The notes below the pieces were generated by a model. It ran no database searches and was not told the DNA's origin. It worked only from the letters and a program-made list of their open reading frames with translations. Source: Dehalococcoidia bacterium (GTDB lineage: Bacteria > Chloroflexota > Dehalococcoidia > SM23-28-2 > WHTN01). Taken from it: a stretch of DNA of 64,000 nt. Numbering within the stretch: the stretch's first letter is position 1; every line of letters starts with the position of its first letter. The position numbers and the translations under genes were made by a program. The stretch is taken from assembly GCA_009377715.1 (NCBI GenBank), contig WHTN01000004.1:4753-68752 (forward strand), read 5' to 3'. This document shows, one piece after another, positions 1,492-20,158 of this stretch.

Positions 1492-1995
1492 AACAACATT
1501 TTCTGTGTGGCTCGTCGATCTCGCCATTTCTATCGCCTTCAAGGCGAGCAGGCACACGTCCTCGGAAACTGGTACGGAGATGCCGCAGCCGGCCAGCTCA
1601 AGAGCGCAGTCGCCCCGCAAATCGGCTTCGTCGACCCATACGCTTATCGCATCGGCATCCGGCGACATGGCCGGGACACCATCGAGCGGGCGGCAGAAGA
1701 AGATGAAGTCGACGTGCTTGTGGGGCTCTCCGCGGTCGAAGCTGTTCTCCAGCAGTATGGCGACGGGCGTCGGAAGTTGCTCCGGATAGGCGAAAGCCAG
1801 GGGTTCCCGGCCAGGTAGCACTTCCACAGCCAGCCCGGTCTCCTCGAGCACCTCGCGCAGAAGCCCCGTAACCGGATCTTCGTCGGGCAGAAGATGGCCG
1901 CCGGGCGGCAGCCACATCTGCGCCTTGCGGTGCCACTGAAGCAGGACCTTGCCGTCGTTGACGACGAAGCCAGTAGCCGTGAAGTGCCTCTCCAT
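1468..1995 (-). CDS. NUDIX hydrolase
   Basis: Nudix box GGHLLPDEDPVTGLLREVLEETG in 175-aa ORF. Confidence 0.85.
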   Translation of the reverse strand: MERHFTATGFVVNDGKVLLQWHRKAQMWLPPGGHLLPDEDPVTGLLREVLEETGLAVEVLPGREPLAFAYPEQLPTPVAILLENSFDRGEPHKHVDFIFFCRPLDGVPAMSPDADAISVWVDEADLRGDCALELAGCGISVPVSEDVCLLALKAIEMARSTSHTENVVGPSTGSW

Positions 1996-2000
1996 GTGCC

Positions 2001-2648
2001 TTAGTCTAACAGCGAGAGGTCGAAATGGGCCAGATCGTCGAGTACTACGTCCGCGAGACTTAGGTCGAGTCCCGTCGTGCTGAGCGTTCGCACAGCTACG
2101 ACGAACATTTCGGCCGCGTTGGCCGACCGTATGCCGGACGGCGAGTCCTCGATCGCCAGGCAGCGCTTAGGCCCTACGCCGAGCCGTTCCGCTGCGAGAA
2201 GATAGCAGTCAGGCGCCGGCTTGTGGCGCTCGACCATCTCGCCGGAGACGATGATTTCGAACGCGTCGCCGAGGCCGATGCCTTCGAGCAGCGCATCAAC
2301 CCACGCGCCCAACGATGACGACGCCAGCCCCAGTCGAAGGCCGCGATCGTGCGCGGCCGATATCAGTTCGCGGACGCCGGTGTTGGGCTCGGCGGGCTTG
2401 CGCAGTTCGGCGAGGACGGCGGGGTCGTAGAGGCGCACATACTCGGCCAGCGGCCGCCTGAGGCCGTAGCGGCGGATGTACTCCTCCCAGGCCGCTTCGA
2501 CGCTGAGACCGATGATCTCGGCGTAGTCGCGTTCTGGGACGAGGACGCCCTCTTCGGCAAGGATCGTGTTGACGGCTGCGTAGTAGCGCGGCTCGCTGTC
2601 GGCGAGCACGCCGTCCATATCGAAGATAATGGCGTCGAAGCGCGGCAT
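2001..2648 (-). CDS. HAD-superfamily hydrolase (subfamily IA, beta-phosphoglucomutase-like)
   Basis: motifs FDMDGVL, HKPAPD, EDSPSGI. Confidence 0.85.
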   Translation of the reverse strand: MPRFDAIIFDMDGVLADSEPRYYAAVNTILAEEGVLVPERDYAEIIGLSVEAAWEEYIRRYGLRRPLAEYVRLYDPAVLAELRKPAEPNTGVRELISAAHDRGLRLGLASSSLGAWVDALLEGIGLGDAFEIIVSGEMVERHKPAPDCYLLAAERLGVGPKRCLAIEDSPSGIRSANAAEMFVVAVRTLSTTGLDLSLADVVLDDLAHFDLSLLD

Positions 2649-2651
2649 CGG

Positions 2652-3317
2652 CTACTGTTGCTCCCAGACGACGTTATCCGACGCGTGGACGATGAGAATA
2701 TCGCCGGAGCAGATTTCGCTTAGCGTATTTAGTTCTTGTGGGGCGCTAGGATCGTAGCTCCGCCAGCTTTGATCGCTTGCTTCATATTGCCACGCCACGT
2801 CTAGGACATCCAGGGTCGCGAACGCATCTTCGACCGGCTTACAGCCATCCGGGTGCCACTCGACGAAGTTCCACCCCTGCCAGAGGTCGACCGTATGCGT
2901 TTGCGGCGTCTCACAGGTCAGGTCCAGCCGGTGCTGCTTGGTGGGATCCCAAACTCCCGTCTGAGCGCAAGGGAGGAACACGGGTTCAGGGAACGGGTCT
3001 ACCCAATCGAAGGTAATCGTATCGCCGTAGCCAGCGCAGCCCCGCTCGACGGTAGTCGCCTTCACGTCTACGGTATAGCCAATGCCAAGCTCCTCGATGT
3101 CCTGGACTTCCGCCAGGCCGCAAATCTTATCGCGGATCTTCGCCCGCACCAGCGTTCCTACTTCAGGAGGCGCCCCTTCGACGGTGACGGTGCCATAGAA
3201 CGTGACGTAACTGAACGTAGGCTGAGCATCGACTTTAGAAGCGTCCGGAGAGACGGTTAGAACTACAAGAGCCACGATACCCGCAAGCGCCAGAATGAGA
3301 GCAACCGATTTCCTCAC
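2652..3317 (-). CDS. secreted/membrane-anchored hypothetical protein (domain A + domain B, paralogous to both ends of the upstream beta-helix protein)
   Basis: hydrophobic signal/anchor (VALILALAGIVALVVL); start moved to GTG ~3317 because the ORF-track start overlaps the upstream gene by ~210 nt; domain similarity seen by eye. Confidence 0.55.
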   Translation of the reverse strand: MRKSVALILALAGIVALVVLTVSPDASKVDAQPTFSYVTFYGTVTVEGAPPEVGTLVRAKIRDKICGLAEVQDIEELGIGYTVDVKATTVERGCAGYGDTITFDWVDPFPEPVFLPCAQTGVWDPTKQHRLDLTCETPQTHTVDLWQGWNFVEWHPDGCKPVEDAFATLDVLDVAWQYEASDQSWRSYDPSAPQELNTLSEICSGDILIVHASDNVVWEQQ

Positions 3318-5244: not shown

Positions 5245-6732
5245 CTACCCCCTACTCCTGAGTTGCGGGAAGAGTATGACCTCACGTATAGACGTCTGAC
5301 CCGTGAGGATCATCGTCAGGCGGTCGATGCCCATGCCGAGGCCGCCGGTGGGCGGCATGCCATGCTCAAGCGCCGTGAGGAAGTCCTCGTCTACGACCTC
5401 CGCTTCGTCGTCACCGGCAGCGCGGAGGCGGGCCTGCTGTTCGAAACGCAGGCGTTGCTCGATGGGGTCGTTTAGCTCCGAGAAGGCGTTCGCCACCTCG
5501 AAACCGCCGATGAACCCTTCGAAGCGCTCGACGTAGCGCGGGTCGTCCGGCCTTTGCTTCGCGAGCGGCGAAAGCTCGATGGGGTAGTCCAGCAGAAAGG
5601 TCGGCTGGATCAGGTGCGGCTCTACGAACGTCGAAAGCAGTTCGTCGATAAGCTTGCCGCGACCCTTGCTGGCGAGGTCACCCGGCGGCAAGCCAAGCGC
5701 CAGCATCGCCTCGCGCAACGAGCCGGCCTCCGGATACTCTTCGAAGTCGAGGCCAGAGCGCTCTTTGATCGCTTCACGCAGCGTCATCTGCCGCCAGGGC
5801 GGCGTAAGGTCTATCTCGTGGTCGCCGCGGGCGACCTTGGGCGTGCCGAGCACCGATATCGCGACGTTATATACAAGCTCTTCGACCATCCGGAGAACGT
5901 CGCGGTAATCGGCATAGGCCTCATACGACTCCATCGTCGTGAACTCGGGGTTGTGTTTGGTGGACAGGCCTTCGTTACGAAAGATACGGCCGACCTCGTA
6001 CACCTTGTCGATGCCGCCGACGATAAGCCGCTTGAGGTGCAGTTCGGTCGCTATGCGCATATAGAAATCGCTATCCAGCGCGTTGTAGTGCGTGACGAAC
6101 GGCCGCGCCGCTGCTCCTCCGGCGCTTGCCTGCAGGATCGGCGTCTCGACCTCAAGGAAGCCGCGGTCGTTCATGAAGCGGCGCACTGCCGCGACCACGC
6201 GGCTGCGCGTTAGCGCTATGCTGAGCGACTCCTCGTTGGCGATGAGGTCGAGATAACGCTGGCGATAGCGGGCTTCGATGTCCTGAAGGCCGTGCCACTT
6301 CTCTGGCAGCGGCCGGATGGATTTCGAGAGGAGCGCGTACTCTTTAGCTTCGACAGTGATCTCGCCGGCGCGAGTGCGGAATAGCGGCCCCACGACGCCG
6401 AGGAAGTCGCCTAAATCGAGGTCCTCCAGTCCAGCGTAAGCTTCGCCGATAAGGTCGCGGCGGAACTGCGCCTGGATCTTGCCGGAGCCATCTCGCAGGT
6501 CTAAGAACGCTACTTTGCCCATGACCCGCATAGCGGTGATGCGCCCCGCGACGCGCGCCTCGACATCGGTGCGCTCCGCTCTGCTGCTTTCGGCCTCCTC
6601 GAAGATGGCCGTCGCTTGGCCCGCAGTATGGGTACGTTGCCAGCGCGCAGGGTAAGGATCGACGCCCTGCTCTCGAAGCCTATCGAGCTTCGCCAGGCGC
6701 TGGTTGATTACTTCTTCGCCTCTATCCGGCAC
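5245..6732 (-). CDS. lysS: lysyl-tRNA synthetase (class II)
   Basis: 495-aa ORF with OB-fold anticodon-binding N-terminus and class II core; greA-lysS arrangement conserved. Confidence 0.95.
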   Translation of the reverse strand: MPDRGEEVINQRLAKLDRLREQGVDPYPARWQRTHTAGQATAIFEEAESSRAERTDVEARVAGRITAMRVMGKVAFLDLRDGSGKIQAQFRRDLIGEAYAGLEDLDLGDFLGVVGPLFRTRAGEITVEAKEYALLSKSIRPLPEKWHGLQDIEARYRQRYLDLIANEESLSIALTRSRVVAAVRRFMNDRGFLEVETPILQASAGGAAARPFVTHYNALDSDFYMRIATELHLKRLIVGGIDKVYEVGRIFRNEGLSTKHNPEFTTMESYEAYADYRDVLRMVEELVYNVAISVLGTPKVARGDHEIDLTPPWRQMTLREAIKERSGLDFEEYPEAGSLREAMLALGLPPGDLASKGRGKLIDELLSTFVEPHLIQPTFLLDYPIELSPLAKQRPDDPRYVERFEGFIGGFEVANAFSELNDPIEQRLRFEQQARLRAAGDDEAEVVDEDFLTALEHGMPPTGGLGMGIDRLTMILTGQTSIREVILFPQLRSRG

Positions 6733-6763
6733 TTCTTACCTCATCTGAAGATGTCTTACTCAT

Positions 6764-6796
6764 AATAGCAAAAGGGCGGTGGATGACCCACCGCCC
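6764..6796 (-). terminator. rho-independent terminator of greA
   Basis: hairpin AAGGGCGGTGG-ATGAC-CCACCGCCCTT followed on the minus strand by TTTTGCTATT. Confidence 0.5.
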
Positions 6797-6821
6797 TTCA
6801 GTTAAGTGCATCGCCGATAAG

Positions 6822-7295
6822 TTAACCGATGTTTGCGATGGTAAAGCGTAGGGTGCCTGCGGGCACCTTAACCGAAACTTCTTGCCCCACACGCTTGCCG
6901 AGCAGCGCCTGACCGACGGGCGACTCGTTGCTGATACGGCCGTCCTTGGGATCAGCCTCCGCACTGCCGACGATCGTGTACTGCTCCTCTTCGCCTTTTT
7001 CGTTATGCACGGTCACCGTCGACCCTAGTTGTACGTTGTTGGAGTGATGGGCTTCTTCCTCATCTATAAGTACGGCGTTCTGGACAAGCTGCTCTAAGAT
7101 CAGTATGCGTCCTTCTACAAACGCCTGCTCGTTCTTCGCATCCTCGTATTCGGGGTTGTTTTGCGGGCTGGCCAGCTCTTTGGCCTCTTGTATTCGCTTA
7201 GCAACCTGCGGCCGTCGCACGGTTCGGAGGTGCTCGAGCTCCTCTCCGAGCTTCGCTAACCCGTCTTTCGTTAGCGGGATCTGTTTTAGGGTCAT
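6822..7295 (-). CDS. greA: transcription elongation factor GreA
   Basis: 157-aa ORF; N-terminal coiled coil and C-terminal FKBP-like domain signature. Confidence 0.95.
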   Translation of the reverse strand: MTLKQIPLTKDGLAKLGEELEHLRTVRRPQVAKRIQEAKELASPQNNPEYEDAKNEQAFVEGRILILEQLVQNAVLIDEEEAHHSNNVQLGSTVTVHNEKGEEEQYTIVGSAEADPKDGRISNESPVGQALLGKRVGQEVSVKVPAGTLRFTIANIG

Positions 7296-7681
7296 TTCAC
7301 GCTCCTAAGAGTCTTAGAAAAAAGCAGACTGAGAGATTTGGCCCCCAGTCTACTTACAATAAATCCGCTCCATATTATAGCATAGCTTTTGCCTGTCAAC
7401 GGATGGATAACGGATTAATGGATACGCGGACGATATTGAATGGTAGGAGATGTTCGCCGAACCACTCTCACTTCAAGGAATAAATCTCTGCCGATTTTAA
7501 TCGGCAGCTTCAAGGTAGCTGCGGGTTGGGTCATTGCGAGCGAAAGCGAAGCAATCTCAGCCCGTTCTATTACGTTGGACTACGTAGCTGAACTTTGGTG
7601 TTATGGCTGCTGGCTGTCTCCACCCTGTTTCGCATGGTACAATGCGCGTAATTGACAATAAGGTTGTGAGGCGGAGGGCGA

Positions 7682-8764
7682 TTGAGTAAGCTGGCGTGGG
7701 TGGCGGTCATACCTCTGTTCCTAAGCGCTGCCGTAGGTGGCGCCGCCGGAGCGCTTATAGCTTATTTCATCGTCGGGAACGATGATAATAATAACGCCTC
7801 AGCAATCGTAAGCCAGGTGGTCCTCGAAGAAGAATCCGCCCTCATAAGCGCGGTGCAAAAAGCAGCGCCCTCCGTAGTAGCCGTAGTGAGCCAAAACACA
7901 TCGAACCAGGGCGGCGCCACCACTGAACGGCTTTCGCTCGGCTCCGGCGTAATAATCGACGCTCGCGGATACATCGTCACGAACGAGCACGTGATTCACG
8001 AAGCGGCGCGCCCCACAGTAATCCTCGCGAACGGAGAGGAACGCCCAGCCGAGGTGATAGGGCACGACGCTCCCTTCACGGACTTGGCAGTCTTGAAGGT
8101 AGCGGAGGGTGGACTGCAGGCGATCGAACTGGGAGATTCGAGCGCTCTCCAATTGGGCCAGCGGGTGATAGCGCTGGGCAACTCGCTGCACGACTTTAAG
8201 AACAGCGTCACTCTTGGAGTCGTAAGTGGGACCGAACGCCGCTTCCCAAGAGAGAACATCTTTATGGAGGACCTGATCCAGACCGATGCCGCAGTGAACC
8301 CCGGCAACAGCGGCGGCGCGCTTGTCAATGCCGCCGGTCAGCTCGTCGGCGTCCCAACAACGGTCGTGCGGTCGGATACCGGACAGGAGGTCGAAGGTAT
8401 CGCCTTCGCTATAGCAAGTCGGACCGTAGGCGAAATAACGAACGAAATAGTAAGAAACGGCCGCATAGCCCGACCGTATCTCGGGGTGGTACACCAAGAC
8501 CTCTTCACGCCGGACGCAGGCCGCCAGTTAGGCCTAACCGCTACGCGTGGCGCGGTCGTGACCGAAGTCACGCCCAACAGCCCGGCGGCGGCCGCTGGCA
8601 TCCGGCGCGGAGACGTCATCTTGCGCATCGGCCAGCAAGACGTCACGCCAGAGATGCCGTTTCTCAACATCCTGCGCAGCCTTCGCCCCAATCAGCAGGT
8701 AGACATCGTCATTGACCGCCGTGGGGAGAGAGTGATTCTCTCCGATGTCACTCTCGGCAGCTAG
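7682..8764 (+). CDS. trypsin-like serine protease with PDZ domain (HtrA/DegP family), TTG start, N-terminal TM anchor
   Basis: catalytic motifs TNEHVI, GNSGGALVN; PDZ-like C-terminus; GGAGG RBS upstream. Confidence 0.9.
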   Translation: MSKLAWVAVIPLFLSAAVGGAAGALIAYFIVGNDDNNNASAIVSQVVLEEESALISAVQKAAPSVVAVVSQNTSNQGGATTERLSLGSGVIIDARGYIVTNEHVIHEAARPTVILANGEERPAEVIGHDAPFTDLAVLKVAEGGLQAIELGDSSALQLGQRVIALGNSLHDFKNSVTLGVVSGTERRFPRENIFMEDLIQTDAAVNPGNSGGALVNAAGQLVGVPTTVVRSDTGQEVEGIAFAIASRTVGEITNEIVRNGRIARPYLGVVHQDLFTPDAGRQLGLTATRGAVVTEVTPNSPAAAAGIRRGDVILRIGQQDVTPEMPFLNILRSLRPNQQVDIVIDRRGERVILSDVTLGS

Positions 8765-8819
8765 TCTCTAGAGTGGAAAAATCGCCAGAGAGAAGCTATA
8801 CTTTTAGCCACCGTAAACT

Positions 8820-10664
8820 ATGAGTCGCATACCTCCTCCTCGCCGTCCCCGCCCCTCGCTTGCAAGGGGGGGAGCAGTCGAACGCCGCCACGAAAGTGGA
8901 GATCCGGTCCCTTTTATAATCGGCGGCGTAATAGTTTTTCTGGCTATCTTGATCTTAGTCCTGTTTCTGCCGCCGTTCTCACTACTCGGGGATGGCGGAG
9001 ACGACGATGGCGACCAGGTATCGACCTCTTCCGGTCTTACATTCAACACCAGCGAGCAACTGCCTGCGTTACCGGATAACCTTGTTGCCGTCAGCCCGCA
9101 CTTATCGGATATCAGGGTGCCCTCCAATCTAACTGATGGGCAGGTCCTCATCAGGATCCGGCTAACCCGTCCCGTCCAGGACGCTTCCAACATCGGCTTC
9201 TATACGTTCGAAGATAACCAGTGGAGCCGTATAGGCGGGGCGTCCCTATCCGAGGACAGACGTGAGGCGCTAGCAGAGTTCGACGAAGTCCCGTCAAACC
9301 TCGCCGTGTTGCAGCTTTCCGGCGCGGCTTTGCAAGTTACTGCCTGGCTGCCCCAGGGCGCAACAGTTAAACAAGAGGCGCAAAGCGTAATAAACGTATT
9401 AAACCCTCTTGGCCTCACTCCAAGAAGCGATGGCAGCGTCTCCGGCAACCTCGGCCAGTTACCCGCTGGATCTTTCCAAGTCCAGCCGGCCCTCCGAGCC
9501 ATCGATGGTGAGGCGGCAAGCGCCGTAACTGCAATACTATCGAATTCAGGGGCGACCCAGCAGCATATCGAGGCGATAGCGAATATCGCCCGACAAGGCG
9601 ACTATAGCGGCATCGATATCGATTACCGCTCTCTCGAAGTAGTGGAGAGACAACAGTTCACCGACTTCATAACGCGACTAGCGCAGCGACTCCACGACGA
9701 TGGCCGCTCCCTAAGCGTGACGCTGCCGCTGCCACAACGGCAAGGCGATATGTGGCGGACCGGCGCCTACGACTGGCCAGCGATAGGCCAAGCCGCGGAT
9801 GTCGTCAAAATCGTGTCCGAACAAGACCAGTCGATCTACAGATCGGTCATGACGGATGTTCTGACCTTCGCTACGGGCGAAGTCCCTGCGAGCAAACTGT
9901 TCCTGATACTGAGCCCCTTCAGCCACGAACGCACCCCCAACGGGATACGTTCGCTTTCGTTCGTCGAAGCTCTCGGCACGGCAACCGTAATGAGCGTAAG
10001 AAGCCCGATGGGCCCGATAAGCACCGGCACGCGCGTTACCGTAACCGGCGATAACATCTATCGCCCAGACGGTGCAACTGGCATCCGTTGGGACGAGGAC
10101 GCCTCTATAGTAAGCTTCTCTTTCCGCTCAAATAACGAGGAGCACACCATCTGGGTCGAGAACTCGTTCAGCATCGCGTTTAAACTCGATCTAGTCCGCT
10201 CCTTCGGGCTGGGCGGGGTAGCGATCGAAGATGCTTCCGACAGTGCAGGAGGCGCCGATATATGGTCGACCGTGGCTAATTCGGTAGCGGGCAGTCTAAC
10301 TCTCGCCAGGCCACACCCGGACAACCTGAGGGCAACGTGGGAAGCCGAACAGGGCGCTATAGAGGCAGGGACCAGCGGGCAAGCAGCAACATGGACTGCC
10401 CCGGACCGTGCCGGAACATATCAGGTCGCCCTTATCGTCGGCGACGGCGTTGCCAGGGTCGGGCGAAGGCTCGATCTTCAGGTGGGCGGTGGCGCGAGCA
10501 CGCCCGCTCCCACAACGGCCGCTACGCCCGTATCGACCGTAGCACCGACTACAATCGCGACGGCTACTCCCGTGCCCACCGCCGAGCTAACGATCGAACC
10601 TACAGCGACGCCTGAACCGACGCCAGAGCCTACCCCTTCACCAACGCCAACCCCTACACCGTAA
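8820..10664 (+). CDS. membrane-anchored GH18-like (chitinase-fold) domain protein with Ig-like segment and Pro/Thr-rich C-terminal tail
   Basis: TM helix IIGGVIVFLAILILVLFL; GH18-like ..YSGIDIDYRSLE.. with Arg where the DxxDxDxE catalytic Glu sits; GLGGV motif; PT-rich tail at ~10490-10661. Confidence 0.7.
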   Translation: MSRIPPPRRPRPSLARGGAVERRHESGDPVPFIIGGVIVFLAILILVLFLPPFSLLGDGGDDDGDQVSTSSGLTFNTSEQLPALPDNLVAVSPHLSDIRVPSNLTDGQVLIRIRLTRPVQDASNIGFYTFEDNQWSRIGGASLSEDRREALAEFDEVPSNLAVLQLSGAALQVTAWLPQGATVKQEAQSVINVLNPLGLTPRSDGSVSGNLGQLPAGSFQVQPALRAIDGEAASAVTAILSNSGATQQHIEAIANIARQGDYSGIDIDYRSLEVVERQQFTDFITRLAQRLHDDGRSLSVTLPLPQRQGDMWRTGAYDWPAIGQAADVVKIVSEQDQSIYRSVMTDVLTFATGEVPASKLFLILSPFSHERTPNGIRSLSFVEALGTATVMSVRSPMGPISTGTRVTVTGDNIYRPDGATGIRWDEDASIVSFSFRSNNEEHTIWVENSFSIAFKLDLVRSFGLGGVAIEDASDSAGGADIWSTVANSVAGSLTLARPHPDNLRATWEAEQGAIEAGTSGQAATWTAPDRAGTYQVALIVGDGVARVGRRLDLQVGGGASTPAPTTAATPVSTVAPTTIATATPVPTAELTIEPTATPEPTPEPTPSPTPTPTP

Positions 10665-10676
10665 CGAATCTTCGAC

Positions 10677-11234
10677 ATGCGGGTTATTGCTGGCACTGCG
10701 AAGGGCCTCCCCCTCAAGGCCCCAAAGGGCAGCGGTCTGCGGCCAACGTCGGACAAGGTCCGCGGCGCTCTCTTCTCTATCCTAACGTCAGCCGGTGTCG
10801 ATCTCGATAGGATACTAGATCTATACGCTGGAACCGGCGCCTTGGGCATTGAAGCTTTAAGCCGCGGCGCCGAACATTGCGATTTTGTCGAGCCGAATAC
10901 GGCTGCTTGCGCTGCGATTCGCGACAACCTTAGTCGCACTGGTTTCGCTGATAAGGCAAGCGTTCATTGCAATTCCATGCAAGTCGCCCAGAGGCGGCTG
11001 TTAGGGCCGTACACGCTCATTATGGCTGACCCACCTTACGATGATATGATGGCTGTTGATACGGTGTTAGGACTGGCATCATCGCTCTTGCGTGACGGCG
11101 GTTCGATGCTCGTGCTGGAGCACTCATCGCGGCATGAGCCACCCGAACTTGTGGAACGGCTCATGCAAACACTCAGCCGTCGCTACGGCGATACAGCGGT
11201 CTCTATATACAAACCGGCAGGAGGCGAAGATTGA
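10677..11234 (+). CDS. rsmD: 16S rRNA (guanine966-N2)-methyltransferase RsmD
   Basis: SAM motif LDLYAGTGALGIEALSRGA and DPPY motif; rsmD-coaD synteny. Confidence 0.9.
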   Translation: MRVIAGTAKGLPLKAPKGSGLRPTSDKVRGALFSILTSAGVDLDRILDLYAGTGALGIEALSRGAEHCDFVEPNTAACAAIRDNLSRTGFADKASVHCNSMQVAQRRLLGPYTLIMADPPYDDMMAVDTVLGLASSLLRDGGSMLVLEHSSRHEPPELVERLMQTLSRRYGDTAVSIYKPAGGED

Positions 11235-11719
11235 CCACGGCGATCTATCCGGGTCGTTTTGATCCCGTAACCAACGGTCACTTGGACATCGTCCAACGTG
11301 CGACAGCGCTATTCGACAAAATCATCGTGGCTGTTTATGAACTCCCCGCGGAGGTCGGCCTATTTTCCACGGAAGAGCGCGTCGCCTTATTCCAACAAGC
11401 AGTCGCTGATTTGGATAATGTCGAGGTAGCATCGTTTAGCGGTCTCGTGGTAGAATTCGCTCGCCGCCAGCAGGCTAAAGTAATGGTTCGAGGCATTCGC
11501 GCCGTAACAGACTTCGAAAATGAGTTCAGTATGGCGATGATGAACCATAAAATGGCTCCAGAGGTAGAGTCTGTGTACCTGATGACTCGTTCGGAGCACC
11601 TTTTTATCAGCGGTAGCCGTATTCGCGAAGTGGCGATGCTGGGCTATGACGTTCATGGAATGGTGCCAGAGCATGTAACCGAAGCGTTGCGTAAGAAGTT
11701 CGAGCGCGGACGGTCCTAG
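11231..11719 (+). CDS. coaD: phosphopantetheine adenylyltransferase
   Basis: MTTAIYPGRFDPVTNGHLD nucleotidyltransferase motif; 4-nt overlap with rsmD. Confidence 0.95.
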   Translation: MTTAIYPGRFDPVTNGHLDIVQRATALFDKIIVAVYELPAEVGLFSTEERVALFQQAVADLDNVEVASFSGLVVEFARRQQAKVMVRGIRAVTDFENEFSMAMMNHKMAPEVESVYLMTRSEHLFISGSRIREVAMLGYDVHGMVPEHVTEALRKKFERGRS

Positions 11720-11809
11720 GAGTATCCGGCAATCGACATACTGCACCTCATTGATAGGCTTGAAGAGTTAGTAGCGGAAGGCCGTAAGCTACCGCTTCGC
11801 GGTGGACTC

Positions 11810-12247
11810 ATGGTAGACCGCCAGCGCCTGCTTGATCTGATCGATCAACTACGAATATCCGTCCCCGCCGATATTCACGAAGCGCAGAAAATCATGCATT
11901 CACAGGACCAGATACTGGCACAGGCCCGCAAAGACTCGGAGGAGATACTCAGCCGTACAGACAGCGAACGAAACCGACAGCTCCAGGAGCACGAGCTGAC
12001 CCGACAAGCGGAGGACAACGCTCAGAGGATCATCGACGAAGCGAACGAACGGGCCAGAGAGCTAGTGAAAGATGCGGAGACTCAGGCGCGTGCCCGGCTC
12101 GACGAATCGATGACGACTGCACAGCAGCAGATGAGCGAGGCCGACCTCTACGCTTTGCAATCGCTCCGCCGGCTGGAAGGCCAGATCGAGAACTTTCTCA
12201 CTACCATCCGCCGCGGCATCGACACCTTCGAAGGCAAGCGGCGATAG
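11810..12247 (+). CDS. hypothetical coiled-coil protein (ATP-synthase-b-like charged helix)
   Basis: 145-aa highly charged, Q/E/R-rich helical ORF; no specific family recognised. Confidence 0.55.
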   Translation: MVDRQRLLDLIDQLRISVPADIHEAQKIMHSQDQILAQARKDSEEILSRTDSERNRQLQEHELTRQAEDNAQRIIDEANERARELVKDAETQARARLDESMTTAQQQMSEADLYALQSLRRLEGQIENFLTTIRRGIDTFEGKRR

Positions 12248-12254
12248 CCTTACG

Positions 12255-13200
12255 TCAATTTAAGAAGTTTATAGCTCTTTGAGCTAGACACCCCTCATCG
12301 CATCCACATGTCGAAGTTCTGCGTTGCTCTAAGCGACACTGGCCTAAAAACGGCGATAACTCTAGTACTTCTCCCAGAGACTTACGAAACACGTTATCGT
12401 AATCAGACTCAGAAGGCCTCGGCTCAACGTTGTGACAAGGACTAATCCAACCGTCCCATCGCACCACAAGCTCTTTAGCGATCGCCACGCATTTGTTCGG
12501 CTCACGATAGCGAGCAAGTGTCGCCTCTCCAAGTCGAACGCGAACATGAGCTTTATCACCGATCATATCGATATGCTCTCTGAGTAGCTCGAAAGGCACA
12601 AAAAAGGCTGTCTCCCTTGGTAGCTGCTCTGCCTTGCGGCACACTCGTCAATATGCGTAGTTCATGAATTCCCAATTCATCGCAAAGAGTTGCTGCTTGG
12701 AGTAGATCAGTCAAGTTGCCGGGGTATGCGAAGAAGGTACACGTAACATTGATTCCAGCCTTGACCATATTTTTAACTGCGAGACATGTCGCTTCAAAAC
12801 TCCCTTGTATCCGAGTTAATGCATCGTGACGAGCAGCCAGCCCAGAATGAAGAGATACACGGCACAGATCGACCCAATTCTTCATCTCAAGCGCTCTTGA
12901 GGAGTCAATCGGAACCAGCCGATATGACGAGTCGAAAAGGACACCCATTGAGAACAATATGGTATTTAACCCGCAGACCTTTGAGCACTCTAGAATTGAG
13001 TGTAGTGATTCATGAAGCAACGGTTCGCCACCTGTAACGATTAGGCTTTGCCCACCTTGGTCTTTAAATTCCTTAATGAGTTTGCAGGCAACGGTATGAT
13101 CCATTTTCTGAGTTCTGCGTAACCCGGCTGATACAGAGCAGTGCCCGCACGCTAATGGACACTGCTGCGTAATCTCCAACCGTAAAGTATCAATTGTGTA
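12255..13200 (-). pseudogene. radical SAM / SPASM-domain enzyme, frame-disrupted (ORF-track pieces 12556..13257 and 12255..12644)
   Basis: CPLACGHC (CxxxCxxC) and TGGEPLL in N-terminal piece; Cys-rich twitch/SPASM-like C-terminus (WDGWISPCHNVEP...CGCDEGC) in another frame; shift within ~12600-12645 next to an A6 run at ~12600-12605; start trimmed to the internal Met. Confidence 0.7.
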
Positions 13201-13777
13201 CATCTGCGGTACTCGATAATAATTGGCGTATGGCAGTGATTGCTTCAAGCCTTGCATCTGTCGAAACTACGACCAATTCGCCAACTTGAAGATCGCACTC
13301 GCGTGCTACCAACCGCTGCAGTCTTGCGAGTCCCACGAAATTGCTATATGCCTTACTGTGGTAATGTTGACTGCGGTACGTTGCTGTCATTATGAGTTCA
13401 CCATCGCGCTGGTGAAATTGAATCGATGAGAGACATGGAAACCCTCTGTTCGCCGCAGCTGAAGTTGATGGCCTACCGAAAAGAATTGGCCGTGGATCGA
13501 CTCCACTTCGGCGCAACGAACGAATGATTCTTACAATTTGATTGACCTTGCCACTCCCGTCATAGTCAACCATTCGCACAAAATAATTGCGGCTATCCAT
13601 TTTCCTTATAAGGCGCTGCGCAGCCTTTTCCCAATTGCTTGCCTCGATCACGGAAATCGGCATTATAGTACGGGCTACGGCACGCATACTGTGTGAGGCG
13701 TCTAGCGATAAAGCCCGATCTATAAGGACACCGCGCTCATCCTCAAAAGACGAAGGTCTTTCTATGCTTACTACCAA
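13190..13777 (-). CDS. thymidylate-synthase-fold protein, 3' portion of a gene interrupted by the IS1595-family insertion
   Basis: alignable by eye to ThyA core: ..GFPCLSSIQFHQRDGELIMTATYRSQHY..SNF..ARECDLQVGELVVVSTD.. vs E. coli ..[46 protein letters not shown]..; begins at TTG 4 nt from the IS left end. Confidence 0.6.
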   Translation of the reverse strand: MVVSIERPSSFEDERGVLIDRALSLDASHSMRAVARTIMPISVIEASNWEKAAQRLIRKMDSRNYFVRMVDYDGSGKVNQIVRIIRSLRRSGVDPRPILFGRPSTSAAANRGFPCLSSIQFHQRDGELIMTATYRSQHYHSKAYSNFVGLARLQRLVARECDLQVGELVVVSTDARLEAITAIRQLLSSTADVHN

Positions 13778-13854
13778 ATTAGGGTAATAATCTAGTTGAC
13801 TCAGTAGAAAAGTCGCTCTATGATTGCTTTAATCTTATTAGCCTGTGGGAGATT

Positions 13855-14610
13855 ATGCAGTCATTTAGCGGTTTTGATTTGTTCGGTTTGGGGCAATTCA
13901 TCACCGCGCTAACGGAAGGGGAAGGGCAGCGCATAATCCCAGAAGACACGCGCCATCAGATGGAGCAGGCTGCGCGGCAGGCCCGGCGGACATGCATTCT
14001 TTGTGGTTTTCCCGCAACGGCTGCTGGACTCGCAAGACTAATTGCCGACCTGCAAGCTCCAATAACTGAGGAGCAGGTCACGATAGGAGGGAGGTATTGC
14101 TTCCAGGCTCTAACGGATGAAGCAGGCGCTAGATTATTTCTTTACATGGGCGAGAGTCGTAGGTATTACTATGAGTCCCCATCAGAAGGATGGAACGATG
14201 TGTTAGAGAAGTTTCCGTCAGCGCGGCTCGACATAGAGGAAGCCAGCAAATGTTACGCATTAGCCCGGTATACAGCTTCTGTGTTCCATTCGATGCGGAT
14301 ACTAGAGCCAGCGTTGAATGCGCTTGCTGGCGAGTTTGCTGTGTCTACGGATAGGGCAAACTGGCATAACATCCTAGATCAGGTCGTTGCCGCTATTGAA
14401 CAAAAGAGTAAGGCGCAAGGGGCTGGGTGGACAGACCAACAGTTCTATTCGGAGGCGGCTGTAGACCTACGTTTCTTCAAGGACGCGTGGCGCAATCACG
14501 TAATGCACGTACGAAAGACCTTTGATGAAGAAAGAGCGTTAGGTATTTACCAGCGGGTCCGCGACTTAATGAGGCACTTATCTACCAAACTAAGCGAGCC
14601 ACCCCTATGA
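13855..14610 (+). CDS. passenger gene of the IS: hypothetical protein with a possible HEPN-like R-x4-H motif (WRNHVMH)
   Basis: 251-aa ORF between IR-L and transposase; the single R-N-x3-H motif near the C-terminus is the only HEPN evidence. Confidence 0.5.
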   Translation: MQSFSGFDLFGLGQFITALTEGEGQRIIPEDTRHQMEQAARQARRTCILCGFPATAAGLARLIADLQAPITEEQVTIGGRYCFQALTDEAGARLFLYMGESRRYYYESPSEGWNDVLEKFPSARLDIEEASKCYALARYTASVFHSMRILEPALNALAGEFAVSTDRANWHNILDQVVAAIEQKSKAQGAGWTDQQFYSEAAVDLRFFKDAWRNHVMHVRKTFDEERALGIYQRVRDLMRHLSTKLSEPPL

Positions 14611-14759
14611 CTTGTCCCGCACCTCATCCTTCGGCTCTCGTATTGCTTCCTTCGGCACGCGGACTATCTTGCGCGTCAACCGCTCAAATCGTTCCCATGC
14701 CGTCTCCGGCGTGCCCTTCGGTTTCTTGGGGTCATTTGCCATGTTTCCCCCTTCCCTGT

Positions 14760-15719
14760 CTACGTTGGCGTCGTAGCGTCTCCTATAAGCTCTGCGTAGG
14801 TCAATCGCTTGCCTGTAATCCTCTTAGCGAGCCGCAGGAAGCGCTCGCCGTCGGTTGCCCTTCGACTGTTGAATCGAAAGGCTTCTTCATCAAGATAACG
14901 GAAAAGGTGGAACGGCTCTACGCTTACATAGGTGCCTTTGATAGCACGTTTCAAGAGGCTCCAGAAATTCTCAATGCCGTTGACGTGAATCCTGCCTTCG
15001 ACGTACTTCTCCGCGTGGTCAATAACACCATGAATATAATCCATCTTCAAGTCATCATAAGAGCGAAACGCGTCTGTAAAGACCTCAGCGCCTTCCTTAG
15101 CCTGACTGCGGACTTGCCCGCTCAGGGCATGGCGGCGACGATTCGCTACGATGGTAGTCCTGACGGTGCTGTGTCCGTCTGGCCCGTGACGCTCCAAAAG
15201 GCCCATGACTGCAACTTTGCCAGTGGCCCAGGTACCAGTAATCTTCTCCGCTCGCTTGTCCTTGTGCATGAAGCGGGCCTTGCCACCGATAAAGGTTTCA
15301 TCGACTTCGATGATGCCGTCCATCTTAGTGTAGTCATCGGACTGCATAGCGAGCCGTATGCGATGGAGCATAAACCAAGCGGTTGTTTGAGTCACGCCGA
15401 GAGCACGGGCCAATTCATAGGAGCTAATACCGTTCTTGTCGTTGGCAATAAGCCACAAGGAAGGAAGCCACCTGTCCAGACCGATAGGGCTGTCCTCAAA
15501 GATAGTCCCTACCTTGACCGAGAACTGCCGTTTGGCGTGCTTGTCCTTGCACTCCCACAGTTGGCGAGTAGAGATGTAACGCGCATCGGTTCGGCCACAA
15601 TTAGGGCACGCGATAACGCCATCGGGCCATCGCATCGCGAGCATAAACTTTTGACAAGTCTCAGGGTCAGAAAAGAACTTAATCGCTTCGAGAAGGGTTG
15701 CGGGCTGGCTGTTATTCAT
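14760..15719 (-). CDS. IS1595-family transposase (ISXO2-like, N-terminal zinc ribbon + DDE domain)
   Basis: 319-aa ORF; ..MRWPDGVIACPNCG.. zinc-ribbon and ISXO2-like DDE region. Confidence 0.9.
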   Translation of the reverse strand: MNNSQPATLLEAIKFFSDPETCQKFMLAMRWPDGVIACPNCGRTDARYISTRQLWECKDKHAKRQFSVKVGTIFEDSPIGLDRWLPSLWLIANDKNGISSYELARALGVTQTTAWFMLHRIRLAMQSDDYTKMDGIIEVDETFIGGKARFMHKDKRAEKITGTWATGKVAVMGLLERHGPDGHSTVRTTIVANRRRHALSGQVRSQAKEGAEVFTDAFRSYDDLKMDYIHGVIDHAEKYVEGRIHVNGIENFWSLLKRAIKGTYVSVEPFHLFRYLDEEAFRFNSRRATDGERFLRLAKRITGKRLTYAELIGDATTPT

Positions 15720-15784
15720 GGCTTTTACTCCTTACAGCCACATTATAACCCAGATAGCTTACTGAGTCAACTAGGTTATTACCC

Positions 15785-15945
15785 AAATTAGATACTCGAT
15801 GATCCTTGGTTTCGAGAAGACAGCTTATAGCTGTTTGCCACGCAGGCCATATATCTGTTTCCGGAATATACAAAGACTGTTCATGGTACAACCTCTTTAT
15901 CTGGTATAGCTTTGAAGGCGAGGCTATCTTGAAGGGCTGATTCAT
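15785..15945 (-). other. displaced 5' fragment of the ThyA-fold gene (in frame with 13777 once the IS and one AAATTA copy are removed)
   Basis: ORF 15712..15945 runs from ATG into IR-R; its frame is continuous with the TTG at 13777 across the insertion point; reconstructed product ~248 aa (ThyA is 264 aa). Confidence 0.45.
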
Positions 15946-16933
15946 CCATTCTTAGTCGTTTGGCCATCGACTGTGAAAGCACTCTGTAATAATTCAGTGG
16001 TGTCGTCTCCCCTTTGGGTGGCGTCATTTTTTTTAGGACTCTAACTGTTGAGTCATTAACTATACCCAGAGCACGCAGCCGGGCGAGTGCTGCTGCGTGG
16101 CTAATTCCATAAGAAGTTTCCATTTCAGCCAGGCTATCCAATATGAAACCTGATGCTAGATATGCTTGAATAGTTTGTCGGGGCAATAGAAGGGCTGAAG
16201 CGAAGACATCTGCTCGATATTCCATGTGCGAACGTGGGCCAGGGCGTTCCCAGCCCGCATCACAAACCGTTGTCCGTAATTCACGATCCATCAGGTAATG
16301 AGCTAATTCATGGGCAAGTGTAAAGCGCTGACGGGAACGCGGCTGGTTATAGTTGACGATTATTGAGGCAAACCTCTTCTCGTCTACGACCATACACCCT
16401 GCAACCCTGGACTTACTCGGAAAACGGGCCCCGAAGACGGCTAGGCCTAGGCGGGTTAAAAGGCCTGAAAAACCGCTTATTGGTTCATTTGGTGGGATAC
16501 CCAAATGTTTACGAATCCTGCGCGCTAGCAACTCACCGGCTTCTGTATCTGCACGAAGTGCTAAATTACGGGTTACATTCGGCGTCTCGCAGGAATCGGA
16601 GACTTGCGAAAGAGAATCATGCAAGGTAAGAAACCAAGATAAGACAGCTTGATCCTCGGGGCTAACAGGTCCAGACCGAAACCGGAAAAGATTGCTACGA
16701 CTGGCCTTTACCGATACAGTTGGTCGGGGCTTAAGTAACTCTACGACAGGACAATTTAATAGTTTGGAAATTACTGAAAGCTCGGAGGCAGTAACGCTAC
16801 GCGATCCTTGCTCAATTCGACTTATCGCAGATCTATCGACACCAAGCAACTCGGCGAGTTGTGCCTGGCTCAGGCTTTGACGATAGCGTGCTTCTTGGAT
16901 ATTGTATCCAATATCCTTATCCGAAACTCTCAT
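15881..16933 (-). CDS. fused XRE-family HTH + ImmA/IrrE-family zinc metallopeptidase (COG2856-like) regulator
   Basis: HTH ..LSQAQLAELLGVDRSAISRIEQG..; HEXXH as FTLAHELAHYLMD; start placed at internal Met (MRVSDKD) because upstream is AT-rich promoter-like DNA abutting the leuS stop. Confidence 0.8.
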   Translation of the reverse strand: MRVSDKDIGYNIQEARYRQSLSQAQLAELLGVDRSAISRIEQGSRSVTASELSVISKLLNCPVVELLKPRPTVSVKASRSNLFRFRSGPVSPEDQAVLSWFLTLHDSLSQVSDSCETPNVTRNLALRADTEAGELLARRIRKHLGIPPNEPISGFSGLLTRLGLAVFGARFPSKSRVAGCMVVDEKRFASIIVNYNQPRSRQRFTLAHELAHYLMDRELRTTVCDAGWERPGPRSHMEYRADVFASALLLPRQTIQAYLASGFILDSLAEMETSYGISHAAALARLRALGIVNDSTVRVLKKMTPPKGETTPLNYYRVLSQSMAKRLRMDESALQDSLAFKAIPDKEVVP

Positions 16934-16940
16934 TTCGGAT

Positions 16941-16970
16941 ATTATAGGCCGGTTATGATCATGGATGCAA
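16941..16970 (-). promoter_or_regulatory. candidate sigma70-type promoter for the XRE-ImmA gene (leaderless transcript)
   Basis: minus strand TTGCAT (16970-16965), 18-nt spacer, TATAAT (16946-16941), ATG 7 nt downstream. Confidence 0.35.
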
Positions 16971-17010
16971 TATTTATTTAAGAGTTTATGTGCGCATTCC
17001 ACACAGGAAA

Positions 17011-19461
17011 TTACCTCAGCACCACGTTGACCAATCGCCCCGGCACGTAGACAATCCGCTCGATGGAAGCACCACCGACGTGCGGCTGCACCTTCTCGCT
17101 GGTGAGAGCGAGCTGCTTCGCTTGCTCCTCACCGATGTCGACCGGCACGGTCAGGCGGTCGCGCAGACGGCCGTTCACCTGTACCACTAGTGTTACCTCT
17201 TCCTCGCGTGCGAGTTCGGCATCATATTCCGGCCAGGCCTGGGTATGTATCGAATACGGATGTCCGGTGTGTGCCCAAAGCTCTTCCGCGATGTGAGGCG
17301 TCAGCGGCGCGGTGAGCAGCAAGAGCGCATCGGTCGCTTCGTGCCATGCCTCAGTGTCTACAGGGCCGGCGTCGGTCGCCCTGTAGAGATGGTTCGTAAA
17401 TTCCATAAGGGCAGCGAGCGCTGTATTAAAGCGGAACCGTTCGATGTCGTTCGTGACGCGCTTGATCGTCTTGTGCGTGAAGCGCCGTAAATCTCTGGTC
17501 GCAGATTCGTCCGCGCTCGTTATGGACTCGATATGATCCTGTGTTATGTTCCAGACGCGATTCAGCCAGCGCCATATACCGCTAATGCCGTCTAGATTAA
17601 ACGGCCCGCCATCTTCCCAAGGACCGAGGAACATTAGATACGCCCGGAAGGTATCGGCGCCGTACGCGGCCACCTGTTCGTCAGGCGCGACAACGTTGCC
17701 GCGGGACTTGCTCATCCGCTGCCCGTCCGGGCCGAGGATCTGGCCCTGGTTGAATAGCCGTATGAACGGCTCATCGCCGGAAACGAGCCCTAAATCGCGC
17801 ACGACCTTCCAGAAGAAGCGGGCGTAAAGGAGGTGCATAACCGCATGCTCTGCACCGCCGGTGTACTGGTCGACGGGCAGCCACTTCGCCGCTGCGACTG
17901 ATTCGACCGGCCCATTATTGTAATGCGGGCTGGCGTAGCGGATAAAGTACCAGTTCGAGTCCAAGAAGGTGTCGATCGTATCGGTCTCGCGCTTGGCGGG
18001 CTTGCCGCACTGTGGACATATCGTATTGACGAAGCCTCCGTGGCGGGCCAGCGGCGATTCGCCGGTCGGCTTGAATTCTGCATCTTCGGGCAGCAGGACC
18101 GGCAGCTGGTCCTCCGGCACGGCGACGACGCCACAGTCCGGGCAATAGACTATCGGTATCGGACAGCCCCAGTAACGCTGGCGGGAGATGAGCCAGTCCC
18201 GTAAACGGTAGATCGTCGTTCGCCGACCCCAGCCTTGCCGCTCGATGTACTCGGAAACAGCCTGCTTCCCTTCCTCGCTCGGCGTACCGTCGAACTGGCC
18301 GGAGTTGATCATGATCCCGAGATCGACGAACGCCTCGGTGAACTCTTCGCGCTGCCAGTCGGGCGGAGAGATGACCACTTTAATGGGAAGGCCATACTTT
18401 TTGGCGAACTCGAAGTCCCGCTGGTCGTGGGCAGGCACGGCCATGACGCAGCCCGTGCCGTAAGAAAGCAGTACGTAGTCGGCGATGAAGACCGGCACGT
18501 CTTCACCGGACAGCAGGTTCTTGCAGTATGCGCCCGTGAAAACGCCGGTCTTCTCGCGCTCGGTCGAAAGCCGCTCGATCTCAGTAGCGCGCCGACTCTG
18601 TTCTACGTAAGCCTCAACCTCGGACCGGCGGTCAGGTGTAGTCAGCAACGGTACGAGCGGGTGTTCCGGCGCCAGCACCATAAACGTCACGCCGTAGACG
18701 GTGTCCGGGCGCGTCGTGAAGACGCGTATCTCCTTCTCGGAGACGCCAGGTGCATCAATGCCAAACGCTATCTCAGTCCCATAACTCTTGCCGATCCAGT
18801 TGCGTTGCATCGCCATCACGGCGTCCGGCCATTGAAGACCGCTGAAATCGAGTAGTTCGTCGGCGTAACCAGTGATCTTGCCTAGCCACTGCTCGATGTC
18901 ACGCTTGGTCACCACTGTACTGCAGCGCTCGCAAGTGCCGTCCGGCAATACCTGCTCGTTGGCCAGCACGGTCTGGTCTACAGGACACCAGTTTGCTGGA
19001 GCTTTCGCGCGGTAAACGAGGCCTTTCTCGAACATCTTTGTAAAAAACCATTGCGTCCATTTGTAATAATCGGGGAGGCAGGTTATTACCTCGCGACTCC
19101 AATCGAAGCCGGCGCCCATGGTCTTGAGCTGTCCGCGCATCCGCTCGATGTTTTCCATTGTCCAGGTGTAAGGATGGATGCCCCTCTTGATGGCCGCGTT
19201 CTCGGCCGGTAAACCGAACGCATCGAACCCCATGGGCAGCATGACGTTGTGGCCTTTCATCCTCTTGTAGCGGGCATACGTATCGGATGGGGCCATCGCG
19301 TACCAGTGGCCTACGTGCAGGTCGCCGGAGGTGTACGGGAACATCGTGAGGGCGTAGAACTCGGCCCGCGGGTCGTCGTCGCGAGCCCTGTAAATCTCAT
19401 CTTGCTCCCACTGCTGCTGCCACTTTTTTTCGATGGCAGTGGGGTTGTATCTCTCTACCAA
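17011..19461 (-). CDS. leuS: leucyl-tRNA synthetase
   Basis: class I aaRS with HIGH-type (HVGHWY) region; start moved to TTG ~19461 (GAGAGG SD 8 nt upstream, ..ERYNPTAIEKKWQ.. typical N-terminus); ORF-track start 19590 adds a 43-aa AT-rich extension. Confidence 0.9.
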   Translation of the reverse strand: MVERYNPTAIEKKWQQQWEQDEIYRARDDDPRAEFYALTMFPYTSGDLHVGHWYAMAPSDTYARYKRMKGHNVMLPMGFDAFGLPAENAAIKRGIHPYTWTMENIERMRGQLKTMGAGFDWSREVITCLPDYYKWTQWFFTKMFEKGLVYRAKAPANWCPVDQTVLANEQVLPDGTCERCSTVVTKRDIEQWLGKITGYADELLDFSGLQWPDAVMAMQRNWIGKSYGTEIAFGIDAPGVSEKEIRVFTTRPDTVYGVTFMVLAPEHPLVPLLTTPDRRSEVEAYVEQSRRATEIERLSTEREKTGVFTGAYCKNLLSGEDVPVFIADYVLLSYGTGCVMAVPAHDQRDFEFAKKYGLPIKVVISPPDWQREEFTEAFVDLGIMINSGQFDGTPSEEGKQAVSEYIERQGWGRRTTIYRLRDWLISRQRYWGCPIPIVYCPDCGVVAVPEDQLPVLLPEDAEFKPTGESPLARHGGFVNTICPQCGKPAKRETDTIDTFLDSNWYFIRYASPHYNNGPVESVAAAKWLPVDQYTGGAEHAVMHLLYARFFWKVVRDLGLVSGDEPFIRLFNQGQILGPDGQRMSKSRGNVVAPDEQVAAYGADTFRAYLMFLGPWEDGGPFNLDGISGIWRWLNRVWNITQDHIESITSADESATRDLRRFTHKTIKRVTNDIERFRFNTALAALMEFTNHLYRATDAGPVDTEAWHEATDALLLLTAPLTPHIAEELWAHTGHPYSIHTQAWPEYDAELAREEEVTLVVQVNGRLRDRLTVPVDIGEEQAKQLALTSEKVQPHVGGASIERIVYVPGRLVNVVLR

Positions 19462-20081: not shown

Positions 20082-20158
20082 GGCCCCGTGGTGTAGTGGC
20101 CTAACATATCTCCCTGTCACGGAGAAGATCGTGGGTTCGAATCCCATCGGGGTCGCCA
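20082..20158 (+). tRNA. tRNA-Asp (anticodon GTC)
   Basis: cloverleaf folded by hand: acceptor GGCCCCG/CGGGGTC, U8, D stem GTGT/ACAT, anticodon stem TCTCC/GGAGA with loop CTGTCAC, T stem GTGGG/CCCAT with TTCGAAT loop, G73, encoded CCA; followed by T-run. Confidence 0.85.

Follow-up and report, generated by a model that had tools for sequence, protein, structure and literature searches.

A divergent thymidylate-synthase-fold gene split by an IS1595-family element in a Dehalococcoidia genome, and the repressor-controlled cassettes of its relatives

We analysed a stretch of 64,000 nucleotides from a Dehalococcoidia bacterium (contig WHTN01000004.1 of assembly GCA_009377715.1), hereafter the window, in which an insertion sequence (IS) of the IS1595 family, 2,003 bp long and lying on the minus strand at 13782..15784, interrupts a gene with the fold of thymidylate synthase (TS). 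The open reading frames (ORFs) on its two sides, 15712..15945 and 13190..13777, are halves of one gene, here named ThyL, which the insertion has inactivated. When 13782..15784 and one copy of the flanking repeat AAATTA are excised, 15945..15791 fuses with 13781..13190 on the minus strand into an open frame of 747 nt, reading ...KDHRVSN-L-VVSIERP... across the junction. The 5' piece of ThyL (15791..15884, minus strand) encodes ...(MRQ)SLYIPETDIWPAWQTAISCLLETKDHRVSN and corresponds to positions 8-33 of a profile hidden Markov model (HMM) of the orthologs. The 3' piece (13190..13781, minus strand; L-VVSIERP...STADVHN and stop) is matched by PF00303, by TIGR03283, by hhalign profile-profile alignment and by the ortholog HMM, and carries the motifs FPCLS, with the Cys nucleophile, YRS, the equivalent of Asn177 of ThyA, CDLQVGEL and STDARL.

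The junction was tested with an HMM built from eight intact orthologs, the window sequence being left out. The joined protein scores 288.4 bits against it, in one domain without gaps that spans profile positions 8-227; taken alone, the 3' ORF scores 255.8 bits from profile position 32 and the 5' ORF 16.4 bits over positions 8-33 (E-value of 3e-7 for that single comparison). Because the 5' ORF covers positions 8-33 and the 3' ORF starts at 32, the two fragments meet at the same profile position. Intact orthologs cross the junction without insertion or deletion, HRxxNL being followed directly by xVxIxxP, and the IS therefore sits within the codons of a family-invariant Asn-Leu. Judged from these alignments, the in-frame join exceeds chance and is no one-in-three accident. 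The original prediction, made from the letters of the window, held that one TS-fold gene had been cut by an IS1595-family element and that its halves rejoin in frame, and the single domain and the abutting fragments bear this out. The orthologs begin not at the TTG at 13777 but about 30 residues upstream, across the junction, and the reconstructed N-terminus turns out to be homologous to those of the ThyA family, at the level of the fold only. The 3' ORF had been said to lack the N-terminal third of the protein; only about one seventh is missing.

The IS is bounded by terminal inverted repeats at 13782..13806 (plus strand) and 15760..15784 (minus strand), which match at 24 of 25 positions and read GGGTAATAA[T/C]CTAGTTGACTCAGTA. 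A search of the 64-kb window allowing 3 mismatches returned no further copy of this repeat, and 0 were expected by chance. The target-site duplication AAATTA lies at 13776..13781 on the left and at 15785..15790 on the right. The right repeat ends in CC, which permits an alternative, 8-bp reading of the duplication as CCAAATTA, at 13774..13781 and 15783..15790. The 8-bp reading puts the right end of the IS at 15782 and the 6-bp reading gives symmetric GGG/CCC ends; the restored target sequence is the same under both, and the empty, IS-free site would read CTTACTACCAAATTAGATACTCG. In the IS1595 family the target-site duplication is typically 8 bp. The transposase, of 319 aa (14760..15719, minus strand), has the DDE_Tnp_IS1595 domain and N-terminal zinc ribbon by which the family is recognised (PF12762, 1e-34; PF12760, 1.8e-11; NF033547, 179 bits, with the cutoff at 75). 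The element resembles others of its family in its transposase and its short inverted repeats starting with GGG, and probably also in its short target duplication; it differs from them by a HEPN-like passenger gene and by a duplication that may be read as 6 bp or 8 bp.

The protein was first taken to start at the ATG at 15945 and to reach 248 aa, close to the 264 aa of ThyA. We reject this start and this length: the orthologs start about 21-24 codons downstream of that position, the structural model leaves the first 21 residues of the 248-aa version disordered, and these are encoded within the upstream regulator gene, and a second assembly shows a translationally coupled start. In three orthologous loci (L001, L003 and L004) the start of ThyL and the stop of the regulator ahead of it share 4 nt. 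In the window, an ATG at 15884..15882 overlaps the regulator TGA at 15883..15881, with a GAGG at 15895..15892, seven bases upstream. This ATG lies 1 nt out of the ThyL frame, in which the available starts are the TTG at 15873 and the spurious ATG at 15945. The second assembly of the locus (L010; Logan, SRR10173838), which equals window positions 8777..18196 and is 99.98% identical over 9.4 kb, has one additional G after 15881 that brings the ATG at 15884..15882 in frame and yields the coupled start MRQSLYIPETD.... The intact ThyL of the window would be about 225-228 aa long. Either one assembly errs at this position or an additional lesion is present in the window allele. The two assemblies also differ by one A/G substitution at 17311, inside leuS, and both differences may be put down either to strain heterogeneity or to assembly error.

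The gene upstream of ThyL (15881..17002, minus strand) encodes a regulator in which an XRE-type helix-turn-helix (HTH) domain is fused to an M78 (ImmA/IrrE) metallopeptidase with the motif HELAH; its start is probably the ATG at 16933, which gives 350 aa. This RmrA-like gene is intact in the window. It matches HTH_3 (PF01381) and Peptidase_M78 (PF06114) in Pfam, and 17 RmrA models in PADLOC, the best at 4e-29 (residues 33-326 on model positions 25-316 of 395); the PADLOC model capP also matches, at 4e-25. The gene downstream of ThyL, sharing 14 nt with it, is a radical S-adenosylmethionine (SAM)/SPASM gene with the motif CPLACGHC (12255..13203, minus strand). With the intact 310-aa ortholog of locus L004 as tblastn query, the match changes from frame -3 to frame -1, and the shift falls within 12594..12621, an interval that contains a T6 run (12600..12605). 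The L010 assembly shows the same split, which may reflect either a true frameshift or a homopolymer error common to the reads. All NCBIfam matches of the radical SAM gene are to SPASM-type families and well below their cutoffs. We considered it as a pVip and rejected this, the matches being weak (6.6e-10) and looking like generic radical SAM similarity.

The region from 12500 to 17000 has a GC content of 0.46-0.50, against 0.55-0.62 in the flanks (leuS and rsmD/coaD), and this difference of about 10 points is suggestive of horizontal transfer into the genome. Close by, at 20082..20155, there is a tRNA gene. A gene resembling uracil-DNA glycosylase (UDG), which intact relatives of the cassette carry, was absent from the whole 64 kb by tblastn at 1e-3. 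With ThyL split, the radical SAM gene frameshifted, the UDG-like gene absent and only the regulator intact, the cassette of the window, a low-GC islet that was probably acquired, is a relic.

The intact relatives show what has decayed. A search of 5.8 billion proteins gave eight relatives of ThyL, six of them full-length (224-260 aa) and unbroken at the junction. This close subfamily is rare and belongs to Chloroflexota wherever the source is known (metagenome-assembled genomes, MAGs, and metagenome contigs); among 185,579 species representatives it occurs in two, a Dehalococcoidia MAG and a Chloroflexi MAG fragment. Every intact close ortholog (L001, L002, L003, L004 and L094) shares one cassette, in the order fused XRE-HTH/M78 gene, translationally coupled ThyL, a variable third gene and a convergent gene of the UDG superfamily with the motifs GEAPG and HPS. 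The third gene encodes a MazG-MazG_C protein in L001, L002, L003 and L094 and the 310-aa radical SAM/SPASM enzyme in L004, as also in the window. The L094 cassette adjoins a Type ISP restriction enzyme. The original prediction was silent on this conserved regulator-effector cassette and on the further decay of the window copy.

Two of these loci call for a remark on their records. In the Dehalococcoidia MAG GCA_040902505.1 (L002/L008), the deposited annotation holds only a 144-aa C-terminal piece of ThyL, and tblastn aligns residues 7-228 of the L004 ortholog unbroken across 7716..8393; that record also lacks calls for the UDG-like gene (8392..9033, minus strand) and for the regulator (6664..7698). 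In L001 the MazG-MazG_C gene (1808..2678) is split over two frames, which may be sequencing error and not decay, because the name of the contig indicates about 2x coverage.

The AlphaFold (AF2) model of ThyL (pLDDT 83.9, pTM 0.83) has the alpha/beta fold of ThyA with its central sheet and long helix J. Foldseek searches against the PDB and against viral models agree with the TS fold, the best structural match being a flavin-dependent dCMP hydroxylase. The Pfam domain PF00303 (Thymidylat_synt) is found at 32.9 bits, above the gathering score of 24.3, the best sequence model is TIGR03283, that of the short methanogen-type TS (E-value of 1e-15), and in length ThyL is like the short archaeal and phage TS-like proteins. 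The two model matches would be expected if ThyL were an ordinary housekeeping TS of the short archaeal type, whose loss to the IS is made good by ThyX or salvage. Yet the curated TS equivalogs all stay far below their cutoffs (TIGR03283, 57.7 against 174.55; NF002497, 29.4 against 327; TIGR03284, 26.3 against 108.35), and ThyL differs from ThyA, including the TIGR03283 type, in lacking Arg126/127, Asp169, His207/Tyr209 and the folate-covering strands of the C-terminus. Unlike ThyA, it is never a stand-alone housekeeping gene: it is always found within a regulator-effector cassette under HTH/M78 control, its distribution is rare and patchy, and in the window it lies in a low-GC islet. We therefore reject a housekeeping ThyA, which these cutoffs, missing ligand contacts and gene context make highly improbable.

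The active site was mapped by hhalign profile-profile alignment to E. coli ThyA (sequence verified), covering ThyA residues 107-208. ThyL keeps Cys146 (FPCLS on APCHA), Arg166-Ser167 (YRS), Asn177, Asp/Asn110-Gln111 and Asp205. This agrees with the motifs first read from the sequence, namely the Cys, the Arg of RS, the Asn of PFN, the CDLxVG segment and the loss of the terminal H..Y. The RS residues had also been read as a phosphate-binding pair: both are present in the window ThyL, and only the Arg is conserved across the wider family. The clamp on the dUMP phosphate (Arg21, Arg166 and, from the partner subunit, Arg126 and Arg127) is incomplete, since the Arg166 equivalent is kept while position 126 is variable and position 127 an invariant Pro; the Arg of the N-terminal His-Arg motif HRxxNL is possibly the equivalent of Arg21. 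The position of Asp169, a folate contact in ThyA, holds His or a variable residue in the ThyL family. His207 and Tyr209, by which ThyA binds the 3'-OH of the deoxyribose, are lost, GGDTHLY aligning to STDARLE with His207 replaced by Arg (the wider family has S-T/G-H-A), and the protein ends about 18 residues past the position of His207, the approximately 55 C-terminal folate-closing residues of ThyA being absent. A substrate or C1 donor different from that of ThyA, as was suggested from the start, is plausible. Towards the N-terminus, local hhalign and HMM searches reach ThyA residues 107-208 only, and the N-terminal register of a forced global hhalign is untrustworthy. Because the sequence alignments stop there, the homology of the N-terminus is carried by the fold and the order of secondary structure elements only.

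Across 49 diverse members of the family, the invariant features are the Pro-Cys context of Cys146, a Tyr followed by a nearly invariant Arg, the Asn177 equivalent (49/49), a Gly and a Tyr-Phe-x-Arg motif. In defence systems an enzyme fold is often turned into a sensor, and ThyL has lost several canonical ligand contacts of ThyA, both of which would fit a non-catalytic protein that binds a pyrimidine nucleotide, for example phage-made hydroxymethyl-dUMP, and signals to the other components. The (near) invariance of Pro-Cys, Tyr-Arg and Asn is instead what one expects of a working Michael-addition site, and we regard a mere sensor as very unlikely.

Within the TS family, an Asp at the position of Asn177 marks a cytosine substrate, and a change of Asp169 to Asn is diagnostic of 5-hydroxy-dCMP synthases (PMC13326640). 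By these specificity rules the invariant Asn of ThyL points to a uracil and not a cytosine base. The flavin-dependent dCMP 5-hydroxylases of phages, HY126 AfhB (PDB 9iqc/9iqu), RB69 gp48 and DLP3 gp80 (PMC13326640), have both the Asp at position 177 and the Asp169-to-Asn change, whereas ThyL has Asn at 177 and His or a variable residue at 169; sequence identity between the two groups is about 18%. With neither diagnostic residue present, we reject membership of ThyL among AfhB-type dCMP hydroxylases. The hydroxylases moreover belong to phages. ThyL hardly occurs on viral contigs, with 2 loci among 2.9 million, and a phage origin of the family is likewise rejected. The two IMG/VR contigs with a relative (L012 and L013) carry MazG_C and M78/XRE genes, and L013 also a UDG-like gene; these copies may be prophage-borne or misclassified cellular cassettes.

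The family extends well beyond the close subfamily. An exhaustive profile search gave 1,487 representatives of clusters defined at 50% identity with E-values of at most 1e-3, 217 of them at most 1e-30, mostly of 250-300 aa. Its members are annotated as hypothetical, as in cultured Rhodococcus, Actinomadura and Pseudonocardia, or wrongly as thymidylate synthase. Pfam, NCBIfam and PADLOC hold no dedicated model for the family, and PF00303 is weakly touched by 23 of 49 members. Gene neighbours were counted from metagenome loci: one 9-residue pattern retrieved 526, of which the best 80 were kept, and ThyL was recovered as an ORF in 70. In these 70 loci the neighbours are an M78 peptidase fused to a chagasin-type inhibitor (Inhibitor_I42; 48 loci), HMUDK_hel (33), HTH (31), a papain-like peptidase (Peptidase_C1; 29), MazG-MazG_C (28), a small carrier-like protein (21), a phosphopantetheinyl transferase (ACPS; 20) and radical SAM/SPASM (3). 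HMUDK_hel holds the convergent position that the UDG-like gene has in the close subfamily. Among the loci of the wider family (the metagenome relatives L014-L093, and L005, L007 and L095), the M78-chagasin fusion is followed by the papain-like peptidase, and the two look like a built-in switch of protease and inhibitor. In Rhodococcus (L095), genes for an HD dGTPase-like protein and Mrr-helicase genes adjoin the cassette. Beside ThyL, many loci also encode a small acyl-carrier-like protein together with a 4'-phosphopantetheinyl transferase, a pairing that fits no current explanation.

Three kinds of known system share parts with these cassettes. In Rosmer defence, RmrA is an antitoxin with an HTH and an ImmA protease, and this one type of regulator accompanies many unrelated toxins, the RmrT proteins having no common sequence (PMC10440598). 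ThyL cassettes are alike in that the regulator is an HTH fused to an ImmA/M78 zinc peptidase, that it matches RmrA over its full length and that variable effectors follow it. They differ in their putative effectors, which instead of a single toxin comprise two or three enzymes with a chemistry of nucleotides or DNA. Among the systems found with DefensePredictor, DS-4 (NTTI), validated in E. coli, combines a TS with a dNMP kinase, HMUDK_hel, TIR and Nmad2, and a system of MazG, MazG-C, NMAD and UDG was predicted without validation (PMC13092281). TS-fold enzymes, HMUDK helical domains, MazG-MazG_C and UDG-like proteins in compact cassettes are common to these systems and to ours. The TS of DS-4, however, is a canonical-type protein of 361 aa with a strong Pfam match, and ThyL forms a separate, divergent branch; genes for a kinase, HMUDK_hel, TIR or Nmad are all lacking from the window cassette, the wider family shares only HMUDK_hel with the partners in DS-4, and the third component of the predicted MazG/UDG system is annotated as NMAD and not as TS. 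Thymidine hypermodification in phages, finally, uses a dUMP hydroxymethylase, 5-HMUDK, a glycosylase-fold aGPT-Pplase and a radical SAM isomerase (PMC5889632, PMC8989533). It resembles the ThyL cassettes in joining a TS homolog to a protein with the DNA-glycosylase fold and an HMUDK-type module, in some cases with a radical SAM enzyme as well, around the C5 of uracil. Still, the phage pathway is a counter-defence that comes with its own polymerase and kinase context, whereas ThyL cassettes are cellular, repressor-controlled and free of a P-loop kinase domain, and their radical SAM enzymes are SPASM-type, not SPL-like.

Our results are best accounted for, with a probability that we put at about 0.6, if the split gene is a short TS-fold gene from an inducible conflict cassette that modifies uracil nucleotides, of which the window copy is a relic. 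We favour an inducible conflict system because of the RmrA match, the restriction-type neighbours, the DefensePredictor systems and the toolbox shared with hypermodification. In such a cassette, the regulator would hold the genes silent until a signal of stress or infection, upon which its protease would remove the repressor function. The Cys of ThyL would then attack C6 of a uracil nucleotide and alter C5 without folate. MazG-MazG_C might adjust the phosphorylation state of the substrate or product and, in the other type of cassette, the radical SAM enzyme might modify either of them further. The UDG-like protein, or the HMUDK_hel protein of the wider family, would act on the resulting base in DNA, the net effect being that replicating DNA of the invader is poisoned or marked. 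We advance more tentatively a bolder form of this proposal, which we regard as possible but doubtful: that ThyL is a folate-independent maker of an unnatural C5-modified uracil nucleotide and the effector of a new and widespread class of Rosmer-like, protease-switched anti-phage systems, in which the glycosylase-fold or HMUDK-type partner recognises the base in replicating DNA.

The same genes could instead form a repair or pool-sanitising module induced by DNA damage, in which an IrrE/DdrO-like HTH/M78 switch drives the TS-like enzyme, MazG as a house-cleaning pyrophosphatase and UDG to protect the cell's own DNA, with no role against phage. Pairs of M78 and XRE proteins do control damage regulons (IrrE/DdrO, ImmA/ImmR), all three types of effector have classical relatives in repair and sanitation, and the context in the window is one of housekeeping genes. 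A module of this kind fits poorly with the patchy distribution (the close subfamily has only two hits in the 185,579 species representatives), with a low-GC islet that has decayed in the window and with restriction or dGTPase-like neighbours at some loci. Neither does it explain the replacement of MazG_C by radical SAM/SPASM at some loci, the pairing of the wider family with papain-like protease and chagasin, carrier protein and phosphopantetheinyl transferase, or the loss of the folate and dUMP-sugar contacts of ThyA. On balance we find it unlikely.

The conflict-cassette proposal must also face several observations that speak against it. The window cassette has housekeeping genes around it, with leuS on one side and the rsmD-coaD cluster on the other, and is not part of a defence island; none of ThyL, MazG_C, HMUDK_hel and the UDG-like protein has a PADLOC model. 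We infer the defence role from gene neighbourhood and analogy. A conserved Cys is no proof of catalysis, and the homology of the N-terminus to ThyA is visible in the fold, not in the sequence. The frameshift in the radical SAM gene and the 1-nt difference in the start region could be assembly errors, and the assemblies of the window and of L010 may derive from the same reads. Carrier proteins, phosphopantetheinyl transferase and SPASM radical SAM partners also fit the biosynthesis of small molecules. They might elaborate a C5-modified pyrimidine nucleotide made by ThyL into a secreted or signalling metabolite, in a pathway of modified nucleosides akin to that of MilA in mildiomycin. The cassettes of the close subfamily are nevertheless tiny (3-4 genes) and have no transporter, glycosyltransferase or tailoring set, an HTH/M78 switch of the kind known from toxin-antitoxin or defence systems is coupled to ThyL in every case, and the UDG-like and HMUDK_hel partners point to DNA and not to a free metabolite. 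We thus see a biosynthetic role as quite unlikely.

An IS that cuts a gene is a routine event, and the copy in the window is dead. The interest of the locus lies in a branch of the TS superfamily that dropped the folate machinery, retained the nucleophile and became tied to compact cassettes under a protease-repressor switch. The ThyL family and its cassette are an uncharacterised variant on three themes, the TS superfamily, Rosmer-type control and candidate nucleotide-modifying defence. If these are immune systems, the production of a modified nucleotide would join depletion and chain terminators among the known nucleotide strategies, and new chemistry at C5 of pyrimidines would be on offer. 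If ThyL is indeed a folate-independent effector, the cassette would be the cellular mirror image of thymidine hypermodification in phages. The intact orthologs in L003, L004 and L094, and that of Rhodococcus (L095), make the function of the cassette directly testable.

The IS itself contributes a last set of observations. Its passenger gene (13855..14610, plus strand) encodes a HEPN-like protein of 251 aa with the motif WRNHVMH (R-x4-H), recognised through its homologs. Over 135 residues, the C-terminal half of this protein shares 47% identity with P0367, itself a match to the Pfam model HEPN. The passenger family counts at least 162 homologs, mostly unannotated, and the one homolog whose surroundings were inspected adjoins a UvrD helicase gene, with no linkage to an IS. 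A 394-aa ORF (14607..15791, plus strand) runs antisense over the entire transposase gene; it matches no family and is most likely a shadow ORF.

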